From: a virus
Taxonomy: Duplodnaviria > Heunggongvirae > Uroviricota > Caudoviricetes
Direction: 5' to 3' (one strand)
DNA: 38,891 bases
Virus record (IMG/VR): IMGVR_UViG_2576861092_000011
Location: 1-38,891 of that record
The notes beneath the pieces were generated by a model, which saw only the letters and a list, made by a program, of their open reading frames with translations, was not told the origin of the DNA and ran no database searches. A program made the position numbers and the translations under genes. The stretch's first letter is position 1; each line of letters begins with the position of its first letter. Below are positions 1 to 37,202 of the stretch, piece after piece.

Positions 1-1158
1 ATGCTCACCGTTAAGCAGATTGAAGCAGCTAAGCCGAAAGAAAAACCATACCGCCTTCTCGATGGTAATGGCCTGTACCTTTATGTCCCTGTATCCGGGA
101 AAAAGGTATGGCAGCTTCGCTACAAGATTGACGGTAAGGAGAAAATCCTGACCGTCGGAAAATATCCGCTTATGACTTTGCAGGAAGCAAGGGATAAAGC
201 ATGGACCGCGAGGAAAGACATCTCGGTTGGCATCGATCCGGTAAAGGCGAAAAAGGCTTCGTCTAACAACAATTCATTTAGTGCGATTTACAAGGAATGG
301 TACGAGCACAAGAAGCAAGTCTGGTCAGTAGGCTATGCAACTGAACTTGCAAAAATGTTTGATGCCGACATTTTACCTATCATCGGCGGCCTTGAAATTC
401 AGGATATTGAGCCGATGCAACTGCTGGAAGTAATCCGCAGATTTGAAGATCGCGGTGCAATGGAGCGAGCCAACAAAGCCCGCAGAAGATGCGGCGAGGT
501 TTTCCGTTACGCTATTGTCACTGGTAGGGCTAAATATAACCCGGCACCTGACCTTGCTGACGCCATGAAGGGATACCGCAAGAAGAACTTCCCGTTTTTA
601 CCTGCCGACCAGATCTCGGCATTCAACAAAGCACTTGCAACATTTTCAGGAAGTATCGTATCGCTCATTGCCACCAAGGTTTTACGCTACACTGCCCTAA
701 GAACGAAAGAGCTTCGTTCCATGCTATGGAAGAACGTCGATTTTGAAAACAGGATTATCACCATCGACGCCAGTGTGATGAAGGGACGCAAAATTCATGT
801 GGTCCCGATGTCAGACCAGGTGGTTGAACTTCTCACTACGCTAAGCTCAATCACCAAACCAGTCTCAGAGTTTGTTTTTGCCGGGCGCAACGATAAGAAG
901 AAGCCAATCTGCGAGAACGCGGTATTGCTTGTGATCAAACAAATCGGCTATGAAGGTCTGGAAAGCGGTCACGGATTCAGGCATGAATTCAGCACGATTA
1001 TGAACGAGCACGAATGGCCTGCCGACGCCATTGAAGTGCAACTGGCACATGCCAACGGCGGTTCTGTACGTGGAATTTACAACCATGCTCAGTATCTCGA
1101 TAAGCGCAGAGAAATGATGCAGTGGTGGGCGGACTGGCTTGATGAAAAGGGGGAGTAA
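1..1158 (+). CDS. intS: P4-type tyrosine integrase (prophage integrase), 385 aa
   Basis: Full-length ORF. N-terminus MLTVKQIEAAKPKEKPYRLLDGNGLYLYV is typical of P4-family integrases; C-terminal HGFRHEF and IYNHAQY carry the catalytic H-x-x-R and Tyr. Matches my recollection of E. coli K-12 KplE1 IntS. Window begins at its ATG. Confidence 0.9.
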   Translation: MLTVKQIEAAKPKEKPYRLLDGNGLYLYVPVSGKKVWQLRYKIDGKEKILTVGKYPLMTLQEARDKAWTARKDISVGIDPVKAKKASSNNNSFSAIYKEWYEHKKQVWSVGYATELAKMFDADILPIIGGLEIQDIEPMQLLEVIRRFEDRGAMERANKARRRCGEVFRYAIVTGRAKYNPAPDLADAMKGYRKKNFPFLPADQISAFNKALATFSGSIVSLIATKVLRYTALRTKELRSMLWKNVDFENRIITIDASVMKGRKIHVVPMSDQVVELLTTLSSITKPVSEFVFAGRNDKKKPICENAVLLVIKQIGYEGLESGHGFRHEFSTIMNEHEWPADAIEVQLAHANGGSVRGIYNHAQYLDKRREMMQWWADWLDEKGE

Positions 1159-1348
1159 TTGGCATAGCCACACTGGAAACAAAAGAAGTTAATCTCTCAA
1201 AATACCAAATGATCAAGTTATATGATAACAGGCGTGAAAATATACATAGAATGACAGTCAACCGCTAGATAACATCTAGTTAGTCTATATAGATAATATC
1301 AACTAAATCTGATAGACTCCCGCTTCCCGTAGAATATGGATTTTTAGC
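1159..1348 (+). promoter_or_regulatory. AT-rich int-oac intergenic region, putative oac promoter, with short palindromes (CTAGATaacATCTAG, TCTATATAGA)
   Basis: 190 bp non-coding AT-rich stretch directly upstream of oac start; palindromes read directly from the sequence. No promoter elements assigned. Confidence 0.3.
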
Positions 1349-2416
1349 ATGAAACATATACAATCTTTAGATGGTGTGAGAGGTATTGCGGTGCTCATTG
1401 TAATGCTTTTTCATGCCAAAGTTTCAGGATTTTCTCTTGGTTGGTCTGGAGTTCCGCTGTTCTTTTGCTTATCTGGTTTCTTAATTACCTCAATCCTTAT
1501 CGAGGATAAAGACTCTGGTTTTAGTAACTATATTAAACGATTTCTTATAAATAGATCGCTTAGAATATTCCCGTTATTTTATGCTTACCTACTTGTTAAC
1601 TTTATTCTTCTAATTGCAACTGGGAAACCAACGGATGGTTATTTGTGGTTTATAACTTATCTACAAAACTATTATATAGGAATAAATGTTACAACACCTG
1701 GAATTTTGGGGCACACCTGGTCTCTTGCAGTGGAAGAACAATTTTACTGGCTTTGGCCTCTATTCATATTTTTCATAAACAAAAAGAATATGAATCTGAT
1801 TTTTATCATACTAATAATAACATCAAGTATATCAAGATATTTTATATTTCAAATCACTGATGGAAACCCATACATTGTAAATGTAACTCTTATCAGTTGC
1901 ATTGACATGTTAGTTCTTGGTGCTCTGTTTTCAAAGATAAAAGATGATAAGTACGCATATGAATCAGGATTTTTAACTTTTATAGCAGGTGTTGGGCTGG
2001 TTCTTAATGGAATAAATTCTGTTGGTCTTAATGCTTTTTGGAACCCTGTAGATTGGGCTGGGAAATGCTGGTATATGTTTACAGCGTTTGGGATGATTTT
2101 TTCATCTGCAATTTTTTTCATTTACAAGTGGAGTGTGCTAGGGAAAAAACAAATAATAACAAAAGCATTATCATTAAAGCCATTAACATTTACAGGAAAG
2201 ATAAGTTATGGTTTGTATATGTGGCATTTGCTGTGTTTTTCAATTGCAAACAAAATGTCCTCCTTGTTTGGGGTAAACAATAATGCTGTGATAATAGCAT
2301 GTGGGTTTGCTATCGCATATATAGTATCAATTGCATCATACTATCTTTTTGAAATACATTTTCTTAAATTAAAAAGAAAAACCAATAGAAATGAAGACAA
2401 TTTAGTTACAGTATAA
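1349..2416 (+). CDS. oac: Acyltransferase-3 family integral membrane protein, probable O-antigen O-acetyltransferase (lysogenic conversion)
   Basis: 355 aa, multi-pass hydrophobic; N-terminal motif LDGVRGIAVLIVMLFH typical of OafA/Oac acyltransferases. Markedly AT-rich versus flanking phage DNA. Sits between int and tailspike as in Sf6. Confidence 0.8.
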   Translation: MKHIQSLDGVRGIAVLIVMLFHAKVSGFSLGWSGVPLFFCLSGFLITSILIEDKDSGFSNYIKRFLINRSLRIFPLFYAYLLVNFILLIATGKPTDGYLWFITYLQNYYIGINVTTPGILGHTWSLAVEEQFYWLWPLFIFFINKKNMNLIFIILIITSSISRYFIFQITDGNPYIVNVTLISCIDMLVLGALFSKIKDDKYAYESGFLTFIAGVGLVLNGINSVGLNAFWNPVDWAGKCWYMFTAFGMIFSSAIFFIYKWSVLGKKQIITKALSLKPLTFTGKISYGLYMWHLLCFSIANKMSSLFGVNNNAVIIACGFAIAYIVSIASYYLFEIHFLKLKRKTNRNEDNLVTV

Positions 2417-2447
2417 AAATAGGGCGGGGAAACCGCCCTATTTTTAT
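2416..2447. terminator. Bidirectional Rho-independent terminator between convergent oac and tailspike
   Basis: Stem AGGGCGG / CCGCCCT with loop GGAAA, flanked by an A-run on one side and a T-run on the other (aaaat-agggcggggaaaccgcccta-tttttat). Confidence 0.75.
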
Positions 2448-4159
2448 CTATCCTCTCTCCACGCCTGCACGAAACATGTAACATTGATGTTTGATACTCC
2501 ATTTCCTGTGGTTGTATCATACACTCGAGCAATGGCAGTTCCACTGCTATGGTAAGTGTCAAAGCTCACTGCGTACTTGAATGGTGATGGCATAGTATTG
2601 GAGTGAAAATCTGGAACCGCCATTGCATATCTTGCATAGAATCCAAAGTTAATTATGTCTCCAGATTTTAAAGTAAGAATGTTTGTATAGTTAGGGGAGT
2701 TTGATATCTTCTCGTCAACACGTATTAGCCTCCCATTACCTTGGATAGTAATTACTGTGAATATTCGATTTGGATCATTGAGATAAACAACAGCTTCATC
2801 ACTGATAATTAGGTGACCTATTGTGCCATCGTCGTTGTAGATTTGAGGGTCGTTTATACGTACTACAGCGTTACCCCTAACCCGGAACAGGTAGGCATTT
2901 GCCCCTGCAGCGTTAACCCTGTTGAATGTCGGGGAGTTAAATGTAACCTCAGAACTAGAGGCGACCACGATAGCCTGGCTTCCTGCTGTAATTTTCCCGT
3001 TTGCAACGTCCATTTCGAAGTTAGGTTGATTAAATATGATTCCTCTTGAGTTCGTATCTATCTGCAGGAAATAAGCATTGGCGGACCCGTTATGTCCCAT
3101 GTTAAGCGCGTTGAATATCTGGTTGCTAGCGCCAGAAACTTTCACGGCATAAGCCGTCCAGTTTGCAACATAACACCCATTGAACACGTTTTGAATAATT
3201 GTTCCGTTACTGGATAGGTTAATCCCGATTCGGTTGTTATTGCACCTCATATTGTTATAAATATTTGAAAAATCAGCATATCCAGCGTTGTAACCAATAT
3301 CAAAGAAATCGAGATAAAGGTTGTTAAACTCACAGTTAACTGCCTTTCCGCAAAAAGACATGTCTATTCCGACCCCGCTACCAACAGGAGGACCGCCAGC
3401 AACAGATCCGTTAACTTGGAGATTCATGTTTGATATAGTAATCCCTCTAACGTCAGAGCCCTCAGGCTTTATTCCGATCGTGTTTATAGGAACGTTAACA
3501 ACTGTTGATGTTATGGATTCACCAGTTATGCTAGTTTTATTTTTTAACTCAAAATTACCGCTCCATACTCCATTAGGCACCTTCAGTAGACCATTGGCCT
3601 CACCTGTGGCAACGGCAATGTTGACAGGGTTTACGTTTTCATTTGTCGCCCCGTAACCACGGATATCACCAATTCTCTGATAGTCATCAACAGATATAAA
3701 ATCATGCACTGTCCTTCCATCGGTAATGCCAACCATGGAAGAACCTATTGATGATGCAAGACGCTGCTCAAGCTGATCCGGGTCGTACTTCAGTACATTC
3801 GGAAAATAAAACTGCTGCGCACCGTACGCATCATAAACAGCCATAGAATGGCCTTGCACGGTAACGAATTTGGCAATCTGTCCATTATATACAGGGTAAC
3901 CAGCAGCGTTAATGATGATTGGTTGCGAAACAGGAACGTGAGAGCCGTCTTCGCTCTCCATATAAACCTGAATCTGGTTTTCAGGATTTACCGGATCAGT
4001 GTCAATTTTTCCTATATAAATTTTGCCATTGGCAACCGCTTTAAAAGAACGTGCCATAGTGAAGAGTTGCGAAGGCATGCTTACCACAACATTTGCAGTG
4101 ATATCTGACATTTCATTGCTCCAGACGAATGATATGATGCAACCATGATGTGATTGCAT
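2444..4159 (-). CDS. Tailspike protein: P22 gp9-like N-terminal head-binding domain plus distinct beta-helix receptor-binding/O-antigen-depolymerase domain
   Basis: N-terminal ~110 aa ([46 protein letters not shown]...[15 protein letters not shown]...NVLKYDPDQ) closely matches the P22 gp9 head-binding domain; the rest is Asn/Gly/Ser-rich repetitive sequence typical of right-handed beta-helix. 3' part is AT-rich. Confidence 0.9.
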
Positions 4160-4232
4160 ACCAAAATGGTACTATTGAGTATTTATCCAGTAGGTTACGA
4201 TGCCATTCCACCCAACTGGTGAGGCATCAAGG

Positions 4233-4628
4233 ATGTACAGCAAATACGACGAGGCGCAGTTTCACTTGAGACTTCCGCATGAACTCCACGCGAAAATTAA
4301 ACAGCGCGCGAAGATGAATAAGAGGTAGCTGAACTCAGAGATAATTGCAGCGATTAAAGAATCATTGGCTAAACAAAGCTCTGCATCAGTTTACATTGAC
4401 GATGCAGAGCGTATGGCAGAACAACAATATGATATGGTTAAGAAATTGTCTTTGATACGCTCAAGGAGCTATATAAAAAAGACAGCAGCTAACCATCAGT
4501 TACGGAGGATTTATGCAAAGAGATATGCTGAATATTGCGTTCTACATATTTGGTTTTTGCACGTTCCTGGTGTTTGCGAAGCTATTCTGACAACGCATCA
4601 GACTTGGCACCCTGAGTCATGGCGTTAA
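4233..4628 (+). pseudogene. mnt: mnt-like ribbon-helix-helix repressor gene interrupted by in-frame amber codon (TAG at 4326..4328)
   Basis: From ATG 4233: MYSKYDEAQFHLRLPHELHAKIKQRAKMNKR-TAG-LNSEIIAAIKESLAKQSSASVYIDDAERMAEQQYDMVKK aligns with P22 Mnt (..PHFNFRMPMEVREKLKFRAEANGRSMNSELLQIV..NDAERLADEQSELVKK) in one frame; the stop replaces the conserved Ser. C-terminal reading extends into the 3' end of the ejection gene on the other strand. Confidence 0.55.
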
Positions 4629-6579
4629 TGGCCTTTTGCGCCTGCTGCATCGCTTTCTCAAACGCTGTTGATCCGCGTGGGGTGTTTGCCAGTCGGAGCA
4701 TTGCATTTCTGAATGGTTCGCTCTCATAGGCGCGAGTAAGAAGTCCGTAGCTTACTGCTGCGCCAGTTGTCGCCGGGTTCATTGCTGTCCCATATCCGAT
4801 AATGAACGGGATGGTTTGCTGCCCTGTTGGTGTTGTTACTGCCGCTTTTGCAGCCTGCTGCGTGGATTGCAGGTAGTTTTTCAATCCTTTCAGATAAGCA
4901 GCGTCCTGCCCCTTAAATGTGATGCCAGTCTGGTTTTGCAGGATGTTAAGCTGCCGAAGGAACTGGTCAGGGGATCCGCCAGATTTCTCCATCGCCTTTC
5001 CAATGATGCCATTGCGCATTTGCGCCCTGCCAACACGACCAACTGAGTTATACAGCGTCTTAATTTCCGATTTGTTCTTGCTGAATAGCATGTTGTTGAC
5101 AACTTCCGGCGTCAGGTCGCCTTTCATGAGAACATTCTTCAGCCTGGTATTCTTTAGTTTCGCCGCTTCGTCAGCGTAGACGGCATTGGCTTGCTGATAT
5201 TTACGGAGAGTATCGTTGCCAAGATTCTGACCAATGGCACCATTGATATCGTCAGTCATTGCCTTGTAAACGCGCTGAATGGCAGCATCGGAACGGTTTG
5301 GTAACACTGGTCGCTCACCCTTCACGTCCATTCTGAACTGGCTGCGCAGGTCGCTTAATTGCTTCAAATCCAGATTTACAGGACCATCAGGGCCAGCATT
5401 GCGAACAAGCTCATCACGATATGACTGAAGTTTTGAAATAGTCTCGTTATCAGCAACCTTACCAAGCTTCTGCAGGTTAGATATTTCTGTATCAATCTGC
5501 TGAATTGCTCGCGCAGGCTGAATGTTTACTCCAGCCATAGCATTCTGAACCTGTTCCAGTCGATTACCGGCGGCACGACGAATTCCTGATGTTTTCGCTT
5601 TAAGGCTGTCAATAACAACCGCTGGATCATACTCACCGAATTTATCAGCAAATCTCTGCACCAACTGGCTTCTCGCTTCCTGTTGCGTTGCTCTCATTCC
5701 GCTTGTGCCAGCCAGAGGGATATTTTCTGCTGTAGTCTGCGCCATTTTCCCGACGCGGGAGGTTGGTTGTAACAGGTCTGTGGTGTGCAGAGGAACTCCT
5801 TCACGCTCTGCAAATCTGATAGCCTGCTGCGCTTCTGGCGCGATAGCACCACGAACGCCACGATAAGTAGCACCTAATCCACGTCCGGCAGCGTTAATAG
5901 CACCGCCAGCAAGTACACCAACTCCTAAATCGGTGGCGAGTGCTTCCGCATCATCTTTCGCACTATTTGCAGCAAGTGATCCAACTGCGTTTTCTGCTAG
6001 AAGGCGAGTTGCCCCCTGAGCAATTCGACCAGCAAGTGTTGGTGCCTGTGCTGCCGCTCTCTCAACGCCAGCAGGAGTGAGGTAAGGCAATGCTTCAGCA
6101 AATACCCTTCCCTCTGTCGTTTGTGGAGTCAGCGCTCCTTGCTGAAGGCCAAAGTCCTGCTCTAATCCCTGCGTTGTTACTCGTGGCGCTGGTTGATATG
6201 TACCATCGCCAATACCGAGTTTACCGCCAGCCCATGCCGCCGCGCTTGTTACAGCATCGGCAACTGATGCAGGTATGTTTGCCACGTTCACGCCAGCCTG
6301 CACCAGTCCGCGACCAGTCTCTTTTACTGCTTCACCAAGATCAGACATAAATCCACTTTGCTGTGGTTGTTGCTGTGCTACTGGTTGTTGTGTCTCCACT
6401 GGCTGCACAGATGGCAATGGATAGGCAGCATAGAAAGCTTGCTTAGCCTGCTCTGCATTTTCTCCGGCTTGCGGGGCCACGACTTCATTGAAGTATTGCT
6501 CCTGAGCCTGCGCTTTTTGTTCTGGTGCTAACGCCTGATACTGTGGAGAGGCGATAACATCTTTCCATGCTTTAGCCAT
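4582..6579 (-). CDS. DNA ejection (pilot) protein, P22 gp16-like
   Basis: 665 aa; position immediately after gp20-like gene in the conserved P22 order 14-7-20-16; Ala/Gln-rich low-complexity composition typical of ejection proteins. Confidence 0.75.
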   Translation of the reverse strand: MAKAWKDVIASPQYQALAPEQKAQAQEQYFNEVVAPQAGENAEQAKQAFYAAYPLPSVQPVETQQPVAQQQPQQSGFMSDLGEAVKETGRGLVQAGVNVANIPASVADAVTSAAAWAGGKLGIGDGTYQPAPRVTTQGLEQDFGLQQGALTPQTTEGRVFAEALPYLTPAGVERAAAQAPTLAGRIAQGATRLLAENAVGSLAANSAKDDAEALATDLGVGVLAGGAINAAGRGLGATYRGVRGAIAPEAQQAIRFAEREGVPLHTTDLLQPTSRVGKMAQTTAENIPLAGTSGMRATQQEARSQLVQRFADKFGEYDPAVVIDSLKAKTSGIRRAAGNRLEQVQNAMAGVNIQPARAIQQIDTEISNLQKLGKVADNETISKLQSYRDELVRNAGPDGPVNLDLKQLSDLRSQFRMDVKGERPVLPNRSDAAIQRVYKAMTDDINGAIGQNLGNDTLRKYQQANAVYADEAAKLKNTRLKNVLMKGDLTPEVVNNMLFSKNKSEIKTLYNSVGRVGRAQMRNGIIGKAMEKSGGSPDQFLRQLNILQNQTGITFKGQDAAYLKGLKNYLQSTQQAAKAAVTTPTGQQTIPFIIGYGTAMNPATTGAAVSYGLLTRAYESEPFRNAMLRLANTPRGSTAFEKAMQQAQKAINAMTQGAKSDALSE

Positions 6580-7973
6580 TAATCACCCCATAGTGAAGAA
6601 AAGTTACTGCTGGCTGCTGGCTGTGATACCTGTGCAGGTTGAGATTGCTGCCGCTGAGATTTACCAACATTAACGTTATATTGTTGGTTGTAATTGTTGG
6701 TGTATTCCTGAATCTCACGAATCGACTGCTGCATAGCCTCCGGGCTTGAATAGTCAACCTGCGGCATCCCCTGAAAATACATCTTCGCTTCTGCAACGGT
6801 GTTAATACCACTGGCCCCCATGTCCCTTGCTGCCGCCACACCCTGATTCTGCATTCTGCCCTGAATACGCTGTGCTGAGTTATATAACTGGCGCTGCTCT
6901 TTTCCTGTTAATCGGCTGCGAACATCAGCACCAATTGCCGGGTTACCTGCGCCGCCGGTCATTCCTGTCATGAAATCGAGAGCAGAAGCGTCTGCATTTG
7001 CGATCGCGTCGATATCCTTCTTCATGGCATAGTTTTGTGCTGATGCAGACGATGTTGCAGGCGCTGCGATTGAACTGGCAGGAACGCGAACCATATTCCC
7101 CTCGTTGTCGACGCCTTCGTAGAACGCATTTGCCCCAGCGCCGTGAAGTTTCCCGCCAACCGTTACAGTTCTGCCATCTGATAACTGAACTGTACGCTCA
7201 TCATTCCCAGTGGTTCCTCTTGTTGACGCTCGCTGCATTGCCAAATCCTGCCCGCGTCGCGCAGTAGAAGCAGATAAATCCTGACCGCGCATCGTGATGT
7301 TCTGACCTCGTGCTGTTAGCGCCTCGCCAGCCTGATTGCTGCGGATTGTCTCTGCAAGTTTTCCGCGATCAATCTCACGCCCAACGATTCTGTCTTGCGC
7401 CTGAAAATATTGTTCTGGACCAAGTGCAGCCATTCCAAGGTGATCAACAAACTCTGTGAAACCTTGTGGATTTTGCTGATACATTTTCGCCACATCCAGA
7501 GGGTCTACTCCGGCACGAGTAAGCTCAGATGAGTTGTTCTGCAACCATGACATCATGGCTTCTGGAGATGAAGCTGCCAGTCTGGCACTTGCTGCCAGTG
7601 TGCCGACAGTGGAACGCTGGTCTTCATCGACAAATTTCATGCCGTTTCTTACAGCGTCAAACTGCTCAGGATACTGTGATGCCAGTTTTCGCATTGCATC
7701 GCGGTCACCAGATGTATATGCATCAGCATAAGCCTGCTGAAACTCTTGCTGTCGCTTCTGCTGATCCATCTGCTTATACATATCCATGACAGATGAAATG
7801 CCCTGCAAAGCCTGCAAGCCAACGTTATTACGTCCTGAACGCTCCATCTCGTTATTCTGTCGAATGTATGCAAGCGTGGCGTCTGCATCACTTGCTCTCG
7901 GAGCGTTGGAGTTCATGCCGCCTAACCCGGCAAGAAGCGCGCCTGAATTACCAGCCTGTTGCCATGTAGCCAA
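6579..7973 (-). CDS. DNA ejection protein, P22 gp20-like
   Basis: 464 aa (P22 gp20 is about 470 aa); synteny; start overlaps stop of upstream gene. Confidence 0.75.
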
Positions 7974-7985
7974 GAGACACCTCCA

Positions 7986-28827: not shown

Positions 28828-28886
28828 ATGTAAGTATTTCCTTAACTAATAAGAAGTTATGCGCATCAACTTATGCGCGTTGTATT

Positions 28887-28929: not shown

Positions 28930-28935
28930 GTGTTA

Positions 28936-29130: not shown

Positions 29131-29160
29131 ATGCACTCTCCGTTATTAACCATGAACAAA

Positions 29161-29225
29161 GAATACTACAGGTATTCAAAGCAATCAATACTCAGGGTAT
29201 TTTTAGTTTAAGTACCTTAGCTATT
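29161..29225. promoter_or_regulatory. OR operator region (PR/PRM): palindromic sites AATAC-N5-GTATT
   Basis: GAATACtacagGTATTC (29161..29177) and AATACtcaggGTATT (29188..29202) are perfect dyads; a weaker third site at about 29211..29225. cI ATG has no Shine-Dalgarno, compatible with a leaderless PRM transcript. Confidence 0.55.
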
Positions 29226-29236
29226 AGAATTAAGCT

Positions 29237-29953
29237 ATGGAAAATAAAAAATCACTGACGACAGAACAGCTCGAAGACGCTAAGCGGCTTAAGGCTTTGT
29301 ATGAGTCAAAAAAGAAAGAATTGGGAATAACCCAATACTCAATCGCTGATGAACTGGGTATCACCCAAGGAGCGGTAGGGCATTATCTTAATGGCAGAAA
29401 CGCGCTAAATGTTGAGGTCGCATCTGGTTTTGCACGTTTGTTGCAAGTCTCAATTGCTGATTTTAGCCAGTCAATTGCTGCCAAGGTTGCAGAACAGGCA
29501 GAAAGCCTTAAGAGCGATGCCAACGTAAGGTATGCAGGGGAATACAGAGCAGGAAAGAGGTATCCGGTGTTAAGCAGTATCCAGGCTGGCTCGTGGTGTG
29601 AAGCATGCGAACCATACACCATTAAAGACATAGATGTTTGGCTTGAGTCTGACGCGCATATTCAAGGTAATGCGTTTTGGCTTAAAGTGGAAGGTGATTC
29701 AATGACGGCACCGGTTGGGTTAAGCATTCCAGAGGGAACATTCGTTCTTTTCGATACCGGAAGGGAGGCGATCAACGGCAGCTTGGTCATAGCAAAACTT
29801 TCTGACTCTAACGAAGCAACATTCAAGAAGCTGATAATCGACGGCGGAAATAAATACCTCAAGGGACTTAATCCTGCATGGCCTCTCGTGCCAATCAATG
29901 GAAACTGCAAGATTATAGGCGTTGCAATTGAGACAAAACTCAGACTGGTTTGA
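29237..29953 (+). CDS. cI: CI repressor (HTH plus S24 LexA-like autopeptidase domain)
   Basis: 238 aa; N-terminus similar to lambda CI (..LTTEQLEDAKRLKALYESKKKELGITQ..); C-terminal ..AFWLKVEGDSMTAP.. and ..FKKLI.. match the S24 Ser/Lys peptidase signature. Confidence 0.9.
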   Translation: MENKKSLTTEQLEDAKRLKALYESKKKELGITQYSIADELGITQGAVGHYLNGRNALNVEVASGFARLLQVSIADFSQSIAAKVAEQAESLKSDANVRYAGEYRAGKRYPVLSSIQAGSWCEACEPYTIKDIDVWLESDAHIQGNAFWLKVEGDSMTAPVGLSIPEGTFVLFDTGREAINGSLVIAKLSDSNEATFKKLIIDGGNKYLKGLNPAWPLVPINGNCKIIGVAIETKLRLV

Positions 29954-29971
29954 TCACGCAAGGGGGCGCTT

Positions 29972-30340
29972 ATGGTTGGAACCGCTATAGCAAGCTTTTT
30001 GGGGATGTTGGCAATCTCAACAATTTACGGCTTAGCGCATGCTTTTATTGCGAAATCTCTATCAGAAAAAATAAGCCAGGCTTGGGCGCATAGATCAGCT
30101 CGTTTCATGATTCTAGTTGTCATAGCAATACAAGGGATATCTGCATTTATCCTCTATGGATCAAGCTTATACCTATTGTATCAAGGCGCGACATTTACGC
30201 CTTACACCAGTGATTACGGAACTCTATACGATGGTAGTGAAGACATCACTGTGGCTTGGATCGTCTTTGGTTTATCTATGGCCGTGTCTGTTGTAGCAGA
30301 CATCATTAAGGTAATTCTCGTCTTAACCTTCGCTGACTAA
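29972..30340 (+). CDS. Small integral membrane protein co-transcribed with cI (rex/sie position); candidate superinfection-exclusion or abortive-infection factor
   Basis: 122 aa with 3-4 predicted hydrophobic helices; strong RBS AGGGGG; 18 bp after cI stop on the same strand. Confidence 0.6.
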   Translation: MVGTAIASFLGMLAISTIYGLAHAFIAKSLSEKISQAWAHRSARFMILVVIAIQGISAFILYGSSLYLLYQGATFTPYTSDYGTLYDGSEDITVAWIVFGLSMAVSVVADIIKVILVLTFAD

Positions 30341-30427
30341 CCTATAATCCCGGCAGCAATAGCTATCGGGATCCACTTCACATATCCCGCATAAAAAGCA
30401 CTGAACAAGCAGACACCGAAAAAAATA

Positions 30428-30512
30428 AATATCCTTTGTATTCATTTGCTTATCATTATTTCACCAAAAATAAATACCTTGGGTATTTACACAATAAAAT
30501 ACCTACAGTATT
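30428..30512. promoter_or_regulatory. OL operator region (PL): AATAC-N5-GTATT sites
   Basis: AATACcttggGTATT (30473..30487), AATACctacaGTATT (30498..30512), weaker AATATccttttGTATT (30428..30442); same half-sites as OR. Confidence 0.55.
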
Positions 30513-30560
30513 CTTTAGCCATCAGCAGGACGCTGGAAGCCAAACGGAACAGATTGGCAG

Positions 30561-30600
30561 GCTCTTTAACATTGATGGGATTGTCCCGCCGAAATGCGGG
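30561..30600 (+). promoter_or_regulatory. nutL: boxA (GCTCTTTAACA) and boxB hairpin (CCCGCCGAAATGCGGG)
   Basis: Upstream of N on the plus strand; same boxA/boxB as nutR. Confidence 0.65.
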
Positions 30601-30708
30601 AACCAAAGAGTAGTTGGCTTTGGGGTGACGTGAAGTGCAGCTGCACGACGGCAACCGGAAGATAAGCACCCGGCGCGTCACCGCCAAAGTCAATCATCGG
30701 AGGTCAAC

Positions 30709-31008
30709 ATGACAGTAGTCATTACATATCTGGCTGACGATAACGCCAGAAATCGCCGCAGAGCACGCAGACAGGCTCAACGTGAACAGGCAATGCAAGA
30801 ACAGCGACTGGCGCGAAAAATTGCGCTAAAGCTCTCTGGTTGCGTCAGAGCAGATAAAGCAGCATCACTCGGAAGCCTTCGCTGCAAGAAGGCAGAAGAA
30901 GTCGAGAGTAAACAGAATCGTATTTACTACCGCAAGCCACGCAGTGAAATGGGTGTGACTTGTGTTGGTCGCCAGAAAATGAAATTAGGCAGCAAACCAC
31001 TTATTTGA
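30709..31008 (+). CDS. N: N-like transcription antiterminator
   Basis: 99 aa; N-terminal arginine-rich motif (DDNARNRRRARRQAQREQA); C-terminus ..NRIYYRKPRSEMGVTCVGRQKMKLGSKPLI resembles lambda N C-terminus. Confidence 0.8.
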   Translation: MTVVITYLADDNARNRRRARRQAQREQAMQEQRLARKIALKLSGCVRADKAASLGSLRCKKAEEVESKQNRIYYRKPRSEMGVTCVGRQKMKLGSKPLI

Positions 31009-31016
31009 GGTGAGAT

Positions 31017-31175
31017 ATGAACATGAATGTATCTTTAACAAAATCATTGCTTGCCAGTCGTGGATTAAAGATGAAACCAACAAAAAGTTATAAAAACGGC
31101 AGTCGATGCTACTCAGTTTCAGGATGGAGCGGAGAGTACACAATCAAAGGTATTTTGTGGCAGTTAGGATTTTGA
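31017..31175 (+). CDS. Small hypothetical early protein (52 aa)
   Basis: Below ORF-track cutoff; ATG preceded by GAGGTGA RBS; first of three tandem small ORFs after N. Confidence 0.4.
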   Translation: MNMNVSLTKSLLASRGLKMKPTKSYKNGSRCYSVSGWSGEYTIKGILWQLGF

Positions 31176-31208
31176 TGATTCTTTTGGCAGCAAGACACAG
31201 AGGTGAAT

Positions 31209-31343
31209 ATGAACGCAGTTGAGTTTACAAAATGGATGGCAGAGCAAGATATCACAGGAGCCGACGAAAAGGCTGTGTACTACATGGCTATGCTATGGAT
31301 TCACAAAGCAAAAGAGGCTGCAAATGCTCTTGGAGGTGAGTGA
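31209..31343 (+). CDS. Small hypothetical early protein (44 aa)
   Basis: ATG preceded by identical GAGGTGA RBS; stop overlaps start of next ORF by 1 nt. Confidence 0.4.
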   Translation: MNAVEFTKWMAEQDITGADEKAVYYMAMLWIHKAKEAANALGGE

Positions 31344-31531
31344 TGAAAGTAAAAATAACTGCTTCTAATACCAGTTTTGTAAGTGTTGGTGATATTACAG
31401 AAGTAATAACAAATCATGATGGAACACAAGTTATGTGGTCTGATTTCTGTAAAAGATATGAGCGAGTTAGTTGGTGTAAACTCGTATGGGGCGTCGAATA
31501 CGAAGAATTACCTGAAATGCATGACGAATAA
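31343..31531 (+). CDS. Small hypothetical early protein (62 aa)
   Basis: ATG 31343 with GGAGGTGA RBS; translationally coupled to upstream ORF. Confidence 0.5.
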   Translation: MKVKITASNTSFVSVGDITEVITNHDGTQVMWSDFCKRYERVSWCKLVWGVEYEELPEMHDE

Positions 31532-31626
31532 GCACTGTGTATTCATTCCAACGAGTGAATACACGGAGCAATGTCGCTCGTAACTAAACAGGAGCCGACT
31601 TGTTCTGATTATTGGAAATCTTCTTT

Positions 31627-31652
31627 GCCCTCCAGTGTGAGGGCTTTTTTAT
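31627..31652 (+). terminator. Rho-independent terminator within the PL operon
   Basis: GCCCTCcagtgtgAGGGC followed by TTTTTTAT. Confidence 0.6.
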
Positions 31653-31716
31653 ATGCATACCAATAACGCTTCACTCGAGGCGTTTTCGTTATGCAATCAA
31701 ACAGAAGGAGCATCCT

Positions 31717-31887
31717 ATGCAACAGTTCGCTATTGCAGGGGCGGCATCGGTTCGCCCTTTCAACCCGATTTTATCGGTACAGCATTCACGAAAAAATATT
31801 TTAACCGGAGCAGACTTTAAACAACCAAGAATGAAAAGTTTGCTCGAAAAGCTTTGGGATATTTTGAAACAACAAGGCCGTCCATGA
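31717..31887 (+). CDS. cIII: CIII-like protein (putative FtsH inhibitor), 56 aa
   Basis: MQQFAIAG.. vs lambda CIII MQYAIAGW..; central amphipathic helix KSLLEKLWDILKQ resembles the CIII core; AGGAG RBS. The longer 91-aa track ORF would run through the terminator and is rejected. Confidence 0.55.
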   Translation: MQQFAIAGAASVRPFNPILSVQHSRKNILTGADFKQPRMKSLLEKLWDILKQQGRP

Positions 31888-31968
31888 GTTTTACAGATAA
31901 CTGGTCAGACGAAGAATTCATTCGTCAGATGAACAAAATGCTCAATCAGCACAAAGAACAGGAGAAAG

Positions 31969-32280
31969 ATGATGATTCTGACTCTGAATGATAAGCGTGA
32001 AATATCGCAAATAATCGCAAGTTTTACTGATGAAGATTACGAACGAATCAACAGTGAAGTTGATCGCCTCTGCAAACGTTGCGACCCAATAAGCGAAATG
32101 CTTCGCTCATATAAACCAGATGAACACACTAAGGACGCTATCGACTGGCTGGAAGATGATGACTGTAACTATCAGGAAAAAGCCGCTGAATGGTTCTGGG
32201 ATGCAATAACCGAAAGAGTTAAGGCTGAATATGCCTTCGCAATATTCAAACGCAGACACATTTTTGGAGAAGCAGCATGA
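31969..32280 (+). CDS. Hypothetical acidic protein (103 aa) immediately upstream of recT; positional analogue of anti-RecBCD genes
   Basis: AGGAG RBS; ATGA overlap with recT start. Function inferred from position only. Confidence 0.5.
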   Translation: MMILTLNDKREISQIIASFTDEDYERINSEVDRLCKRCDPISEMLRSYKPDEHTKDAIDWLEDDDCNYQEKAAEWFWDAITERVKAEYAFAIFKRRHIFGEAA

Positions 32281-33179
32281 GCAATATCGTTGAATTCGTT
32301 AAACAGCAGGAGCAGTTATTCTGCGGAGCATTGACTGAACAGACGGTGACATGGGCTAAGGAAAGCCAGTTTGCAATTCAGTATTTCCAGAAAAACGATT
32401 ACCTGGCTAAAACGGCACTGGCAAATCCAACCAGCGCACAGAACGCCATCATCAATGTTGCGGCGATCGGCATCACCTTAAATCCTGCCAGCAAACTGGC
32501 TTATCTGGTTCCGCGCGACGGCATGGTGTGCCTTGATATCAGCTATATGGGATTGCTACATATTGCAATGGAGTCTGGTGTTATCTCATGGGGTCAGGCA
32601 AAACTTGTTCATGCTAACGATACCTATGAGTCAAACGGGCTTGATAAAGCACCAACCCATAAATACAACGCCTTCGGTGATCGTGGTGATATCGTTGGCG
32701 TTTACTGCACAGTTAAGACGCCAGCAGGTGATTATCTAACGGAAGAGATGAGTCTGGCTGAAATTGAGGCTGTAAGGAAAACAAGCAAGGCAGCATTCAG
32801 CGATAAAGGACCATGGGTAAATCACTGGAATGAGATGGCGCGAAAGACGGTCGTAAAGCGTGCAAGCAAGTATTGGCCTAAGGCATCACGTCTTGATAGT
32901 GCTATTCACGTACTAAACGAAGAAGAAGGTGTATGGACTGAACCAGTTATGCCGCACAAATCAGAGGAAGATATCCGCGAAGATGAACGGAAACTCCAGC
33001 AGGAAATAACGGATAAAGCACAACTTCTTTGTGATGAAATGGCTCAGGCAGAAAACATGGATGATTTGAAGCGATATTTTGCAGAAGCATATCGCCTGAC
33101 ATCTGGAATGAAATTGCAGCAGAACGTACAAGCCATTTACATAGAATGCAAAGCGAAACTGGAGGTTGCCAGTGAGTAA
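32277..33179 (+). CDS. recT: RecT-family single-strand annealing recombinase
   Basis: 300 aa; ..KGPWVNHWNEMARKTVVKRASKYWP.. matches the conserved RecT motif (NGPWVTHWEEMAKKTAIRRLFKYLP in Rac RecT). Confidence 0.85.
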   Translation: MSNIVEFVKQQEQLFCGALTEQTVTWAKESQFAIQYFQKNDYLAKTALANPTSAQNAIINVAAIGITLNPASKLAYLVPRDGMVCLDISYMGLLHIAMESGVISWGQAKLVHANDTYESNGLDKAPTHKYNAFGDRGDIVGVYCTVKTPAGDYLTEEMSLAEIEAVRKTSKAAFSDKGPWVNHWNEMARKTVVKRASKYWPKASRLDSAIHVLNEEEGVWTEPVMPHKSEEDIREDERKLQQEITDKAQLLCDEMAQAENMDDLKRYFAEAYRLTSGMKLQQNVQAIYIECKAKLEVASE

Positions 33180-33654
33180 ACTGTATGAAATTGCCAATGA
33201 ATACGCAAAATTGATGGATTCAGATTTAGAGCCAGAGATGATTGCTGACACAATAGAAGGCATGGAAGGAGAATTTACCGATAAAATAGAGCAACTTCTC
33301 GCCATTATTAAAAATGAATCTGGTTATGCTGAACGCCTCAAGGAAGAGGCAAAGTCACTAAATGAGCGAGCCGCAGTAATTCAAAATAAGATTGACAGCA
33401 TTATGGCGTATATAGCGTCATCGCTTGAAATGGTTGGCAAGAAAAAGATTAGAGCAGGTATTCACCAGGTAACAATCCGCAAAACGTCAGAAACTGTAGA
33501 AATCATCGACTCAAGCGCCCTTCCTCCTGAATACGTTGAGTTCGAAACAACAATTAAAGCCGACAAGTTGGCAATCAAGCACCAACTAAAAGCAGGAATA
33601 AATATCCCCGGCGCTCAACTCAAGGTTGGGAAACCTTCACTTCTTATCAAATAA
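33172..33654 (+). CDS. Sipho_Gp157-family protein (partner of RecT-type recombinases)
   Basis: 160 aa from a GTG start with GGAGG RBS; N-terminal acidic helix, central coiled coil, C-terminal beta-rich ..PPEYVEF....KADKLAIKHQLKAGINIPGAQL.. fits my recollection of the Gp157 family. Confidence 0.55.
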   Translation: MSKLYEIANEYAKLMDSDLEPEMIADTIEGMEGEFTDKIEQLLAIIKNESGYAERLKEEAKSLNERAAVIQNKIDSIMAYIASSLEMVGKKKIRAGIHQVTIRKTSETVEIIDSSALPPEYVEFETTIKADKLAIKHQLKAGINIPGAQLKVGKPSLLIK

Positions 33655-33665
33655 CGGTATCGACT

Positions 33666-33980
33666 ATGAAAAAGACTCCATGGGAGAAATGGGAAGTCGA
33701 TTTCTTGCGCGAAGTGGCGGCGACAATGCCAGTTGAAGTTATCGCTGAAAAACTGGAAAGGACTGAAAAAGCAGTAATGGCGAAAGCAACAAGGATTGGA
33801 GCTGACATTGTTAGCCGACTTCGTGGAAGACGCTGGACAAGAGCCGAAGTATCACTTTTCGGTAAGTTCTCCGCAGAAGAAATAGCAATTGCAACCTGCC
33901 GCTCAATTTATTCAGTAAGAGCTATGCGATACAAGCTAAAAAAACTCGATGAAGAAAGAGCAGGCATACGAATAAATTAA
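33666..33980 (+). CDS. Hypothetical protein (104 aa) with two tandem HTH-like repeats
   Basis: Two similar segments beginning W-x-x-x-EV/VD and containing EEIA-like helices; basic C-terminus. Confidence 0.5.
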
Positions 33981-34157
33981 CAAAGAGGAATTAATCATGA
34001 GAGGACTTGCTTACAATCCCGGCATTCTTCCGGCAGAAATGATTATTCGCCAACGCGTAAAGCCAATGCCATCGAGAGAGGAATTACTTAAGAGAAATTC
34101 TTTTCCTTCAGTGAATCAAAACAAATATCTGAATGCGATGTGGCGGAGTGGGAAGAA

Positions 34158-34589
34158 ATGAAACAAATGTCACTAATTGAGATGGATGGTTTTCTGAAAG
34201 GTAAATGCATCCCACGAGATTTAAAGGTTAACGAAACAAACGCTGAATATCTGGTGCGTAAATTTGCTGAAGCGGAGTCCAAGTGCGCGGCGCTGGCGGC
34301 GGAGAATGCGGGGCTGAAGTCTGGCGCTATGGACGAAATCAAGGTTATCAACCGTGGAGGTCAGGCATATTGCGTAAAAGATGGAGTGCGAGTTAATCCC
34401 ATGTATGCAAGAGGGTGGAATGACTATCGCGCAAAGTCTCTGCAATCAGACACCCCAGCCACCGATGCTTTCCTGGCTGAAATTCGTGCACAGGGGGTTG
34501 AGATGTTTGCTGACAATCTGTTGTGTCCAGACCTTGATGGCACTATCCGTGACTTTGCTGCCCAGCTTCGCAAAGGAGGCAACCAGTGA
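34158..34589 (+). CDS. Hypothetical protein (143 aa)
   Basis: ORF in early-left operon; start set at ATG 34158 (ATGA overlap with a possible 54-aa upstream micro-ORF at 33997..34161). Confidence 0.5.
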
Positions 34590-35230
34590 GTAACCGTTTT
34601 TACATGATGTGCTTGCGTGAAACTGTGGGTAATAACGCCTCATTCCATTGCCATAACGGCAATGGTTACAGTTCTGATATCGATCGCGCTCATGTTTACA
34701 CGCTGGAAGAAGCCCAAAAAGCCTGGAATTGTGGGCGAGATATCGATCAGCCTGTTTGCGCTGATAGCGTGGATGCAATGGCAGTGTGGCACGTTGATTG
34801 CCAGTACATCCCTACAGAAAGCCTGATTGAGTCAGATTGCACTGCGTATGTGGCCTACAAAAAAGGTAGCTGGAACGGCAACGATGTTTACTGGCTTCAA
34901 CACGGTGGATTGCCAACAGATGACTTCAGTAAAGCGACCATCTTTAGCGTCGCCAACAAAAACGAACCAGGAATAGTTTGGTTGCCATTTTCCATTGCTG
35001 ATGCAGCAAAGCGCAGGACGTTCAATATCAATAACTTTAACCGCAGAACAATGGTTCAGGGCGCAGGTTTGGTCATGCCTGACTGGTTGAAAGAGCAGAA
35101 CAGAAGAAAGAAGTCGCGAAGCGGGAAGGTGCGTTGGAATTGTCCGCATTGCGGAAAAATCTCCTGGCAGTACAGCCCATATGATTTTGAAGGCTGTAGT
35201 GATTACAACTGTGAAGGATGGCGAGAATGA
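34586..35230 (+). CDS. Hypothetical Cys-rich protein (214 aa) with C-terminal zinc-ribbon-like CxxC...C..C
   Basis: GTG start with AGGAGG RBS; C-terminus ..WNCPHCGKISWQYSPYDFEGCSDYNCEGW.. Confidence 0.5.
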   Translation: MSNRFYMMCLRETVGNNASFHCHNGNGYSSDIDRAHVYTLEEAQKAWNCGRDIDQPVCADSVDAMAVWHVDCQYIPTESLIESDCTAYVAYKKGSWNGNDVYWLQHGGLPTDDFSKATIFSVANKNEPGIVWLPFSIADAAKRRTFNINNFNRRTMVQGAGLVMPDWLKEQNRRKKSRSGKVRWNCPHCGKISWQYSPYDFEGCSDYNCEGWRE

Positions 35231-35760
35231 CAATTGACTATCAGGCACTGCGTGATGCGGCAGAAGCAATAAAAATAGCAGCCACACCACAAAAATTGCT
35301 GGCATTTCGTATGAAGGTCACACCTCAGGTTGTGCTGGCACTACTGGATGAACGGGAAAGGAACCAGCAATACATCAAATCCCGCGACCAGGAGAACGAG
35401 GAAATTGCGCTAACGGTAGGGAAGCTGCGCGTTGAGCTGGAAGCAGCAAAAAAGCGCATAGCAGAACTGGAAGCCGAACCTGTAAGCCAAACTTACAAGT
35501 TGAGCGAGCTATCGGGCAACTCTCCGGTAACTCCGGATGGTTGGATAAGCTGTAGTGATCGAATGCCTGAAAAGGGCCAGAACGTGCTTATTTCGGTGAA
35601 TTTCGATAGCTCTCTGGTTGAACCGCTAATATGCTCGGCACGCTATACCGGGAGCACCTTCCGGCGCGGAGCTGCAACGGTTAAGCCGGGTAACGGTATT
35701 GAGCAAGCAACTCACTGGATGCCGCTGCCAGAACCGCCGCAGGAGGTTAACCGTGGCTAA
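35227..35760 (+). CDS. Ea22/Ead-like protein with C-terminal DUF551 domain
   Basis: Coiled-coil centre then ..DGWISCSDRMPEKGQNVLI....ATHWMPLPEPP.., the DUF551 signature common in lambdoid early-left regions. Confidence 0.6.
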   Translation: MTIDYQALRDAAEAIKIAATPQKLLAFRMKVTPQVVLALLDERERNQQYIKSRDQENEEIALTVGKLRVELEAAKKRIAELEAEPVSQTYKLSELSGNSPVTPDGWISCSDRMPEKGQNVLISVNFDSSLVEPLICSARYTGSTFRRGAATVKPGNGIEQATHWMPLPEPPQEVNRG

Positions 35761-35830
35761 CCTGCAACTTGCCGTCAAAGGTGAATAACAATCCTCGCAC
35801 TCGCGGGGATTTCTTTTATATGGGGATAAT

Positions 35831-36631
35831 ATGACCATCCACTTTCACGGCAGCCCAATATGGGGTGATGAGCATGCCCATACAGATATGCTGATTAAAG
35901 CCCTTTACCGTGATGGTGGGGCTTTTGTTTCATTTGCCAGACCAGAGCAGATGAAAAAGATTGCCATGTTCCCTTGTGATATACGCCTTGATAACGGTGC
36001 TTTTAGCGACTGGATGAAAGCATTAAAGAAAGGCACTCCGGTAGACTGGAGTAAGAGACGAGCAAAATTCTACGACTTTGTTGGGAAGTGGTTCAGCAGA
36101 ATTGAATGGTTTCTTATACCTGACGTTATCGAAGGGACAGAGGCAGAAAACGACGAGCAGATTGAGTTGGTTCCTGATTGGCTAAAATCAAAAGCGGTTC
36201 CGGTCTGGCATACCGACGAATCAATTGAACGTCTTTTACGCCTTTCTGGCAAATTTGAATGGGTGGCGATTGGATGCTGCGGCCCACACAGGCACATACG
36301 CTCTAAATGGTGGGAACAGAGAATGGATGAAGTTTTCACTGAGCTTTATATCAATCGTAATTTGAAAGTGAAAATTCATGGTCTTCGAATGCTCGACGTG
36401 AGAGTTCTTGGTATGTATCCGTTCGCCAGTGCGGATTCTACTAATGTTGCTGTTAACGTACCGAAGACAGAGAAGCGATTTCCTGAGATTACCGACAAAC
36501 TGGCACGTACAGCTGTACTTCGCGCTGCTATTGAAAAGGTGCACCCGCCATCGATATCAGCATGGGTAGACAGAAAGATGAGAGAGCCGGCGCAAGCCGG
36601 TTTTTTATTTGAATTCACCGACGCCGCTTAA
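35831..36631 (+). CDS. Hypothetical protein (266 aa), function unknown
   Basis: Good RBS (GGGGA); largest unassigned early-left ORF; no confident family recognised by eye. Confidence 0.55.
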   Translation: MTIHFHGSPIWGDEHAHTDMLIKALYRDGGAFVSFARPEQMKKIAMFPCDIRLDNGAFSDWMKALKKGTPVDWSKRRAKFYDFVGKWFSRIEWFLIPDVIEGTEAENDEQIELVPDWLKSKAVPVWHTDESIERLLRLSGKFEWVAIGCCGPHRHIRSKWWEQRMDEVFTELYINRNLKVKIHGLRMLDVRVLGMYPFASADSTNVAVNVPKTEKRFPEITDKLARTAVLRAAIEKVHPPSISAWVDRKMREPAQAGFLFEFTDAA

Positions 36632-36688
36632 TGCGGATTTCTTTTATATGAACTCGCTACGGCGAGTTTTGTTTTATGGAGATGATAA

Positions 36689-36856
36689 ATGCACTTCCGA
36701 GTCACAGGTGAATGGAATGGAGAGCCATTCGACAGGGTTATCGAAGCAGAGGACATCAACGACTGCTATAACCACTGGATGATATGGGCGCAGATAGCAC
36801 ATGCAGACGTAACCAATATTCGAATTGAAGAACTGAAAGAACACCAAGCCGCCTGA
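36689..36856 (+). CDS. Small hypothetical protein (55 aa)
   Basis: Below track cutoff; ATG with GGAG RBS; stop lies within the downstream terminator stem. Confidence 0.35.
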   Translation: MHFRVTGEWNGEPFDRVIEAEDINDCYNHWMIWAQIAHADVTNIRIEELKEHQAA

Positions 36857-36869
36857 TGGCGGTTTTTTA
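36848..36869 (+). terminator. Rho-independent terminator at the end of the early-left operon
   Basis: GCCGCCtgatGGCGG followed by TTTTTTAT. Confidence 0.65.
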
Positions 36870-36878
36870 TTGCCTGAT

Positions 36879-36894
36879 TTGCAGGTTCGATTCC
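36879..36894 (+). other. 16-nt tRNA-like fragment (TTGCAGGTTCGATTCC), resembling a tRNA T-arm, upstream of torI
   Basis: Exact match to the T-stem/loop region of tRNA-Arg(CCU) (argW) as I recall it; not a complete tRNA. Confidence 0.45.
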
Positions 36895-36913
36895 CTATTC
36901 GGAGATAGCACTC

Positions 36914-37114
36914 ATGCAACACGAACTACAACCTGATTCACTGGTTGATTTGAAATTCATCATGGCTGATACTGGCTTTGGTAAAACCTTCATCTATGAT
37001 CGGATTAAGTCCGGCGACCTGCCAAAAGCCAAAGTTATCCACGGGCGAGCAAGATGGTTATATCGTGACCATTGTGAATTCAAAAATAAGCTCTTAAGCC
37101 GCGCCAATGGGTAA
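36914..37114 (+). CDS. torI: Excisionase / recombination directionality factor, TorI-like (AlpA/HTH_17 family)
   Basis: 66 aa MQHELQPDSLVDLKFIMADTGFGKTFIYDRIKSGDLPKAKVIHGRARWLYRDHCEFKNKLLSRANG; winged-helix excisionase pattern; matches my recollection of E. coli TorI at the prophage end distal to intS. Confidence 0.85.
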   Translation: MQHELQPDSLVDLKFIMADTGFGKTFIYDRIKSGDLPKAKVIHGRARWLYRDHCEFKNKLLSRANG

Positions 37115-37182
37115 AATAGCGGGTAAAATATTTTTCACATCTAAAAAATACCATTCCAATCAATCCCCTGCCGCGCCAAGTA

Positions 37183-37202
37183 GATGTCTGCAGGGGACAC
37201 CA
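37183..37202 (+). other. Putative attR core: copy of the 3' end of tRNA-Arg (argW)
   Basis: GATGTCTGCAGGGGACACCA; the last 15 nt equal the recalled argW 3' end including CCA, 18 of 20 overall. Lies between torI and host DNA. Confidence 0.55.

Follow-up and report, generated by a model that had tools for sequence, protein, structure and literature searches.

An apparently intact P22-like prophage with intS-type integrase and torI genes at opposite ends occupies the KplE1 site in Escherichia coli argW

In Escherichia coli K-12, the integrase gene intS and the excisionase gene torI bracket only a 10.2-kb remnant, KplE1 (CPS-53), at the tRNA gene argW. The same two end genes are found in a viral stretch of 38,891 nucleotides (IMG/VR record IMGVR_UViG_2576861092_000011, positions 1 to 38,891; Caudoviricetes), here called the window, and this raises the question of whether they enclose a complete phage. 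A first-pass annotation had proposed that they do and that the phage is P22-like. About 55 open reading frames (ORFs) were annotated with PHROGs and Pfam, and each was compared by tblastn with Sf6, HK620, CUS-3, Kapi1, P22, and one sister prophage. Nucleotide matches were sought in 50,697 phage records and 5,426 complete E. coli genomes. We conclude, with a probability of about 0.9, that positions 1 to 37202 represent all but about 176 bp (at the attL end) of an integrated temperate P22-like podovirus (genus Lederbergvirus; the group of Sf6, HK620, CUS-3, and Kapi1) lodged in the 3' end of argW.

The left edge of the window is occupied by an intS-type tyrosine integrase gene (1 to 1158, plus strand) whose 385-amino-acid product contains Arm-DNA-bind_3, Phage_int_M, and Phage_integrase domains. 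The gene is 96.2% identical to K-12 intS over 1,156 nucleotides, and the protein is 99% identical to K-12 IntS (98 to 99% across the integrases of K-12, Sf6, HK620, CUS-3, and Kapi1). At the right edge lies torI (36914 to 37114, plus strand), which encodes a 66-amino-acid recombination directionality factor (RDF), or excisionase. The protein is 100% identical to TorI of K-12, Sf6, HK620, and Kapi1 and to residues 1 to 66 of PDB entry 1Z4H. Both end genes are thus what the first-pass annotation took them to be. Similarity to K-12 extends beyond torI: positions 36864 to 37202 are 97.3% identical to the K-12 stretch that begins 50 bp upstream of torI and ends with pawZ, and the match stops exactly at 37202. 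pawZ is a 15-bp argW fragment that marks attR of KplE1. With these two ends set aside, sequence that the window shares with the 10.2-kb K-12 remnant amounts to just 86 bp.

The site at which this similarity stops is an att core. attR (37115 to 37202, plus strand) consists of a phage P arm followed by the 15-bp core CTGCAGGGGACACCA (37188 to 37202), which is the 3' end of argW and corresponds to pawZ in K-12. Left of the core, the sequence (ending in CAAGTAGATGT CTGCAGGGGACACCA) is a close match to the P arm in attP of Sf6 and HK620, while to the right host DNA (beginning GATACCC) stands in place of the phage P' arm (beginning TTTATCAG). An empty site was rebuilt by fusing the yfdC-argW segment of a sister prophage to window positions 37203 to 37502. 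This construct gave one uninterrupted match with 100% coverage and 99.7% identity, and matches with at least 80% coverage were found in 1,415 of the 5,426 complete genomes. A further 372 complete genomes have torI-attR joined to this same host flank. Together, the stop in similarity at the core and the rebuilt empty site place the right end of the prophage exactly at 37202, and both this coordinate and the assignment to the KplE1 site agree with the initial proposal. The same results bear on the explanation that the window is an assembly or window artefact in which a free phage genome was wrongly joined to host DNA. Nothing favors this beyond the start of the window exactly at the int ATG, and we regard it as extremely improbable because the transition from phage to host falls exactly at the att core, the joined flanks rebuild a natural empty site, and the junction recurs in the 372 complete genomes.

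Coordinate 1 is the edge of the window and not of the prophage, and the left end was estimated from relatives. A sister prophage (L009) is 97.8% identical over window positions 1 to 9093, and in it a tRNA-Arg(CCU) gene ends in the same core 161 nucleotides upstream of the int ATG; a prophage of an O166:H15 strain has the same argW-core-int arrangement. At the left end, the core CTGCAGGGGACACCA(T) was seen only in sister prophages that share this int (L009 and L006, with argW directly upstream). With the 161-nucleotide spacing of these relatives, the whole prophage would be about 37.4 kb long.

Beyond the core, positions 37203 to 38891 are host flank and not prophage. They contain argW-distal DNA, the remnant of a DUF4942 gene (about 37412 to 37561), and the sucrose permease gene cscB (37644 to 38891, minus strand), where K-12 has dsdC. 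The DUF4942 fragment, within 37203 to 37643, is annotated in other genomes. It suggests that an older island left a remnant in a variable region beside argW. A small ORF (37107 to 37238, plus strand) homologous to HK620 hkaB and Sf6 gene 17 spans the att core and has its 3' end replaced by host sequence; it is probably not a genuine gene, or else is expressed solely by the circle. In addition, a 16-nucleotide exact copy of the argW T arm, TTGCAGGTTCGATTCC (36879 to 36894, plus strand), lies 19 nucleotides upstream of the torI ATG and is distinct from the true att core. It is kept in K-12 KplE1, Sf6, HK620, Kapi1, and the O166 prophage and overlaps the spot annotated in HK620 as a cII-activated integration promoter. 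We considered it as a second att core or a relic, but it is conserved throughout the family and we assign it no role beyond the HK620 promoter overlap. The CUS-3 GenBank record labels this copy "attR core" and stops there, which is why that record lacks torI.

int and torI lie on the same strand at opposite ends of the prophage, 35.7 kb apart, with three terminator-like hairpins directly upstream of torI (36581 to 36606, 36650 to 36669, and 36846 to 36865, plus strand; 6 such sites were found in this region versus 1.2 expected). No excisionase-like ORF was found beside int, where the next gene encodes an acyltransferase, so a lambda-style int-xis pair is absent. The predicted order in the circular phage, torI-attP-intS, with the RDF and integrase genes flanking attP, is the order annotated as int-attP-TorI in the Sf6 and HK620 virion genome records; in contrast, P22 is organized as attP-int-xis. 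This split layout is real but already published and is no discovery. The KplE1 recombination module shows high conservation in HK620, Sf6, CUS-3, and other prophages, transcription of int and of the RDF gene is uncoupled, and IntS has been shown to carry out TorI-dependent excision on substrates from KplE1 and HK620 (Panis et al. 2010, PMC2951348). Numerous phages and prophages at argW carry the same module (2012 TorI paper), and in Kapi1 attP lies between int and xis, which leaves one of these genes at each prophage end (Pick et al. 2022, PMC8787464). The prophage has little import for basic biology: experiments on KplE1 and HK620 had already resolved the split layout and the argW site, and both are also on record for Sf6, CUS-3, and Kapi1. 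The value of the present analysis is mainly in annotation, namely, the exact boundaries, the HK620 immunity type, and the P22 packaging type.

The window shares with KplE1 intS, torI (TorI 100% identical), the attR core, and the argW site, an experimentally dissected module, but the K-12 element is a 10.2-kb remnant with gtr genes that lacks virion, lysis, replication, and immunity genes and is flanked on the right by dsdC rather than csc. One could imagine a composite in which the int and torI ends came from a KplE1-like remnant already in residence, with a P22-like genome unrelated to it inserted or recombined between them. K-12 does have the same two ends around unrelated remnant DNA, and P22 itself uses a different, lambda-style int-xis pair. 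However, the virion genomes of Sf6, HK620, and Kapi1 join int-attP-torI to the same neighbors as in the window (a tailspike or conversion gene by int and ea genes by torI), and the window contains one integrase only, with no second att core and no second excisionase. A composite origin is thus very improbable.

The ORF map of the window switches strand near position 2430 and at 29180, the pattern of a lambdoid prophage read from the integrase end. Thirteen virion genes lie on the minus strand (2444 to 18466) in P22 order, TerS-TerL-portal-scaffold-coat-gp4-gp10-gp26-gp14-gp7-gp20-gp16-tailspike (P22 genes 3-2-1-8-5-4-10-26-14-7-20-16-9). Each has a full-length PHROG match and is 92 to 100% identical in amino acid sequence to a reference. 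The P22-like assignment is supported by this gene order, by a P22 head-binding domain on the tailspike, and by Lederbergvirus phages being the best DNA matches of the window.

The terminase is of the P22 type and consists of a large subunit (TerL, 16504 to 18000, 498 amino acids), 92% identical to P22 gp2 over residues 1 to 485 and 100% identical to that of the O166 prophage, and a small subunit (TerS, 17978 to 18466, 162 amino acids) with a full-length match to phrog_606 and 99% identity to its O166 counterpart. The family match of TerS and TerL to the P22 type would be compatible with headful (pac) packaging and a short-tailed virion. Portal (14303 to 16507), scaffold (13319 to 14212), and coat (12047 to 13300) are 99% identical over their full lengths to those of Kapi1, and scaffold and portal are equally close to CUS-3, whose coat is 94% identical; a small ORF (11817 to 12044) follows. 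The tail hub or adaptor genes gp4-like (11375 to 11836; 100% to CUS-3) and gp10-like (9947 to 11365; 98 to 99% to all coliphages compared) are followed by a gp26-like tail needle with knob (9099 to 9947; 98% to Sf6). The ejection and assembly genes comprise a gp14-like gene (8632 to 9102; 95% to Kapi1), gp7-like and gp20-like genes (7986 to 8645 and 6579 to 7973; 99 to 100% to the O166 prophage), and a gp16-like gene (4582 to 6579; 99% to Sf6), all with full-length PHROG matches.

The rest of the minus-strand block and the region to its right follow a lambdoid early-region layout, with N, cI/cro/cII, O/P, nin, Q, and then S-R-Rz. The lysis genes (20210 to 21427, minus strand) are holin S (21104 to 21427) with an MKM dual start, endolysin R (20644 to 21120), Rz (20210 to 20647), and embedded Rz1 (20263 to 20454) with a lipobox, and their products are 97 to 100% identical to those of Sf6, HK620, and CUS-3. 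Replication genes encode a DnaB-like helicase P (26050 to 27501) and initiator O (27476 to 28366; both minus strand), each 99% identical to Sf6. Origin iterons, TGGACAACCGT, form two clusters of three at 27886 to 27984 and coincide with the rep_origin annotated in Sf6. The immunity region (28549 to 30512) is of the HK620 type (98.6% nucleotide identity over 1,921 bp) and contains cII (28549 to 28827) and cro (28936 to 29130; 98%) on the minus strand, OR (about 29160 to 29226), cI (29237 to 29953; 100%) and an hkaS-like ORF (29972 to 30340) on the plus strand, and OL (about 30428 to 30512). The operator AATACnnnnnGTATT is repeated at OR and OL, and the cI product keeps LexA-type self-cleavage (S24 autopeptidase) motifs. 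An early-left operon (30709 to 33654, plus strand) includes N (30709 to 31008; 100% to CUS-3), small ORFs, a cIII-like gene (31717 to 31887), orf103, and genes for RecT (32277 to 33179; 100% to Kapi1) and a Gp157/Gam-like protein (33166 to 33654; 95% to Kapi1).

Between int and torI there is therefore a full complement of virion, lysis, replication, and immunity genes, as the first-pass annotation had claimed. None of the structural, lysis, replication, or regulatory genes is shortened, and all are 92 to 100% identical in amino acid sequence to those of Sf6, HK620, CUS-3, Kapi1, P22, or a sister prophage. In the late leader (pR', qut, tR'; 21428 to 22210, minus strand), where Sf6, Kapi1, and the O166 prophage have genes for tRNA-Asn and tRNA-Thr, lambda orf-64-like sequence takes their place at 21669 to 21938; this proved to be a lambda-type leader variant, with nothing essential deleted. 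A search for tRNA genes and Rfam RNAs across the window found none.

Is the prophage then intact? All reference ORFs were compared with the window by tblastn to find hidden pseudogenes, and the accessory gene mnt was the only real one; other stops were dismissed as belonging to off-frame or antisense ORFs or as lying upstream of true starts. mnt, of the Arc/Mnt family (4233 to 4491, plus strand), lies between gp16 and the tailspike gene and carries a TCG-to-TAG nonsense mutation at 4326 to 4328 and a 1-nucleotide deletion in an A run near 4443, as judged from a 98%-identical alignment with L009, which has an intact 86-amino-acid mnt with Pfam Arc and Repressor_Mnt matches. No arc or ant gene was found in the window, and the viable phages Sf6 and HK620 are also without a working immI, so the lesion is not expected to matter. 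The loss of arc and ant leaves what was the Pant/Omnt region directly upstream of the tailspike gene. The word "intact" thus holds for all essential genes but not for mnt, and attL falls outside the window.

Several points weigh against an intact temperate phage. The window opens at the int ATG, so the int promoter, attL, and argW lie upstream of it and only one att site is seen directly. The decay of mnt shows that the element has undergone some mutational decay, and missense defects, promoter defects, and pac site compatibility cannot be judged from sequence. Finally, no phage record or complete E. coli genome covered at least 80% of either query segment (1 to 25000 or 25001 to 38891), so this exact mosaic is one without demonstrated plaque formation. 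An alternative is a recently immobilized cryptic prophage, complete in appearance but unable to yield infectious particles owing to missense or regulatory lesions or to damage in attL. Two independent inactivating mutations in mnt do imply some time under relaxed selection, attL is out of view, and the exact mosaic is absent from isolated-phage records. Set against this, essential ORFs show neither interruption nor shortening when compared with those of working phages, mnt has no target here (ant and arc being absent as in viable Sf6 and HK620), and conservation extends to the operators, ori iterons, attR, and terminators. We therefore consider a cryptic prophage unlikely and favor an apparently intact temperate one, with the reservation that viability lies beyond what sequence can establish. 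attL aside, each testable feature of P22-like phages and of the IntS-TorI module is present, phenotypic features excepted.

In megablast searches, the phage records matching the window were only Lederbergvirus and lambdoid relatives (Kapi1, vB_EcoP-720R6, IME10, CUS-3, Sf6, HK620, and HK140), each covering part of it. Since only partial matches were found among phages and complete genomes, we regard the prophage as a new mosaic of familiar modules. With Sf6 (NC_005344) it shares the int-attP-TorI module (Int 99%, TorI 100%), 94 to 100% amino acid identity in gp16, gp26, gp10, O, P, cII, NinG, NinH, NinI, the Dam methyltransferase, S, R, and Rz, an acyltransferase conversion gene convergent to the tailspike gene, and the absence of an ant/arc immI region. 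Sf6 differs in having another type of coat, scaffold, portal, and terminase, 434-like rather than HK620-type immunity, a tailspike receptor domain and an acyltransferase with no close relationship to those here, genes for tRNA-Asn and tRNA-Thr, and IS911. HK620 (NC_002730) matches in the immunity region, including the operators, in Q and P, and in an int-attP-hkaC (TorI) module with annotated excision and integration promoters, but it has Sf6-type head genes, a 710-amino-acid tailspike, a different recombination module, Sak4-like where the window has RecT, and an O-antigen polymerase-like moron in place of the acyltransferase gene. Kapi1 (MT813197) and CUS-3 (CP000711) resemble the window in argW integration and in coat, scaffold, portal, and gp4 (94 to 100%, the lowest value being the CUS-3 coat), with RecT and Gp157 shared with Kapi1 and N with CUS-3. 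Unlike the window, these two phages have Sf6-type terminases, a full immI (arc, ant), P22-like immunity, and tailspikes of 792 and 981 amino acids. P22 (NC_002371) is alike in virion gene order, terminase type, Q (98%), gp10 (93%), and the tailspike head-binding domain; it differs in its lambda-style attP-int-xis arrangement, in its integration site and its integrase, for which no match was detected, and in having gtrABC conversion genes and a full immI.

The analysis shows which genes are present, that they are complete, and where attR joins the host; regulation, inducibility, receptor, and modification chemistry are inferred. On the basis of homology with HK620, Sf6, KplE1, and lambda, a life cycle can be proposed for this prophage. 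In the lysogen, an HK620-type CI repressor would hold OR and OL. The prophage would presumably be inducible, with the SOS response leading to CI self-cleavage and the opening of pL and pR. N-antiterminated transcription from pL would cross the recombination and ea genes and the three terminators into torI, which would be the last early-left gene. Expression of IntS would start at an autoregulated promoter of its own that overlaps attL, as has been shown for KplE1 (PMC2951348). TorI, IntS, and IHF could then recombine attL with attR at the 15-bp core and release a circle with the order torI-attP-intS; conversely, integration would put intS beside attL and torI beside attR. O and P would replicate the circle from the iterons inside O, and Q would switch on the late operon. 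The P22-type terminase would fill heads of the Kapi1/CUS-3 type by a headful mechanism, after which S, R, Rz, and Rz1 would lyse the cell. The beta-helix tailspike would bind, and probably cleave, a surface polysaccharide, and the adjoining acyltransferase would modify that glycan in the lysogen.

The tailspike and acyltransferase genes are the only unusual part of the window. The tailspike gene (2444 to 4111, minus strand; 555 amino acids) encodes a P22 head-binding domain (PF09008 over residues 1 to 113, E value of 2.7e-66) followed by a rare right-handed beta-helix, the predicted receptor domain. In an AlphaFold2 model built with 12 homologs, residues 140 to 555 form this helix, with block means of the predicted local distance difference test (pLDDT) mostly between 80 and 95, and Foldseek matched the model to the tailspikes of Sf6, HK620, P22, and CBA120; sequence relatives in PDB cover the head-binding domain only. 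The corresponding PHROG profile has 632 positions, but truncation was rejected: homologs are 542 to 555 amino acids long and the beta-helix model is complete. An identical 555-amino-acid protein is present in a large protein database, in a 90%-identity cluster of 59 sequences. The convergent gene (1349 to 2416, plus strand; 355 amino acids, 32% G+C) encodes an Acyl_transf_3 family O-acyltransferase (PF01757 over residues 5 to 331; phrog_3333, O-acetyltransferase) that is 100% identical to an NCBI protein from an E. coli draft genome. It occupies the same position as Sf6 oac and is presumed to be an O-antigen-modifying lysogenic-conversion gene.

Window positions 1159 to about 3760 had no megablast match in the complete E. 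coli genomes, and the tailspike beyond its first 233 residues had no match in any of the phage records. The convergent pair does recur in P22-like prophages from Logan assemblies, where L009 has both proteins at 100% and L011 has the tailspike at 85% and the acyltransferase at 70%. It is also found in a Trabulsiella prophage (77 and 73%, respectively), in which the receptor domain is carried on a T7-type fiber N terminus. Across these cases the two genes diverge to a matching degree. Another prophage (L012) has a 58%-identical tailspike without the acyltransferase beside it. The pair is a rare allele of the tailspike and O-antigen-conversion pairing familiar from Sf6 and P22. Whether 1349 to 3760 is in addition a mobile two-gene cassette that recognizes and modifies the same glycan, moving as a unit between unrelated tail architectures, appears to us evenly balanced. 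If so, the prophage would target and convert a surface polysaccharide unrepresented among complete E. coli genomes or sequenced phages. The pair may be a marker of an unusual specificity in O antigen or serotype conversion and could be of use to catalogs of phage host range.

The remaining genes are accessory or belong to a block (22211 to 25991, minus strand) made up of the antiterminator gene Q (22211 to 22834; 99 to 100% to HK620 and Kapi1) and the nin region, which contains NinI phosphatase (22831 to 23496), NinH, NinG, NinF, a NinX-like gene, NinE (24836 to 25012), an N6-adenine methyltransferase (25009 to 25596; TIGR01712 over its full length), and NinB (25533 to 25991). A 174-amino-acid ORF (24878 to 25402, plus strand) matches phrog_37455 from end to end, but it runs antisense within the Dam methyltransferase gene and is most likely spurious; the phrog_37455 family probably consists of wrongly called antisense ORFs. 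Between RecT/Gp157 and torI, positions 33666 to 36856 (plus strand) carry ea-type accessory genes (Ead/Ea22, DUF551, a phrog_887-like ORF, and others) and a conserved 55-amino-acid ORF (36689 to 36856). The phrog_887-like product (35831 to 36631, plus strand; 266 amino acids) matches a family labeled queuine tRNA-ribosyltransferase, some records name it TolA, and Pfam, NCBIfam, and PADLOC gave no match for it. PADLOC identified no defense system among ten accessory ORFs. Between the lysis and packaging genes (18472 to 20222, minus strand) are orf162, a DUF2560-like orf80, orf50, and a gene for a 200-amino-acid protein (19508 to 20110, minus strand). The last has a C-terminal Tad2-like domain (Thoeris anti-defense 2, PF11195/DUF2829) over residues 118 to 200 (E value of 1.5e-21) and is a possible anti-defense gene.

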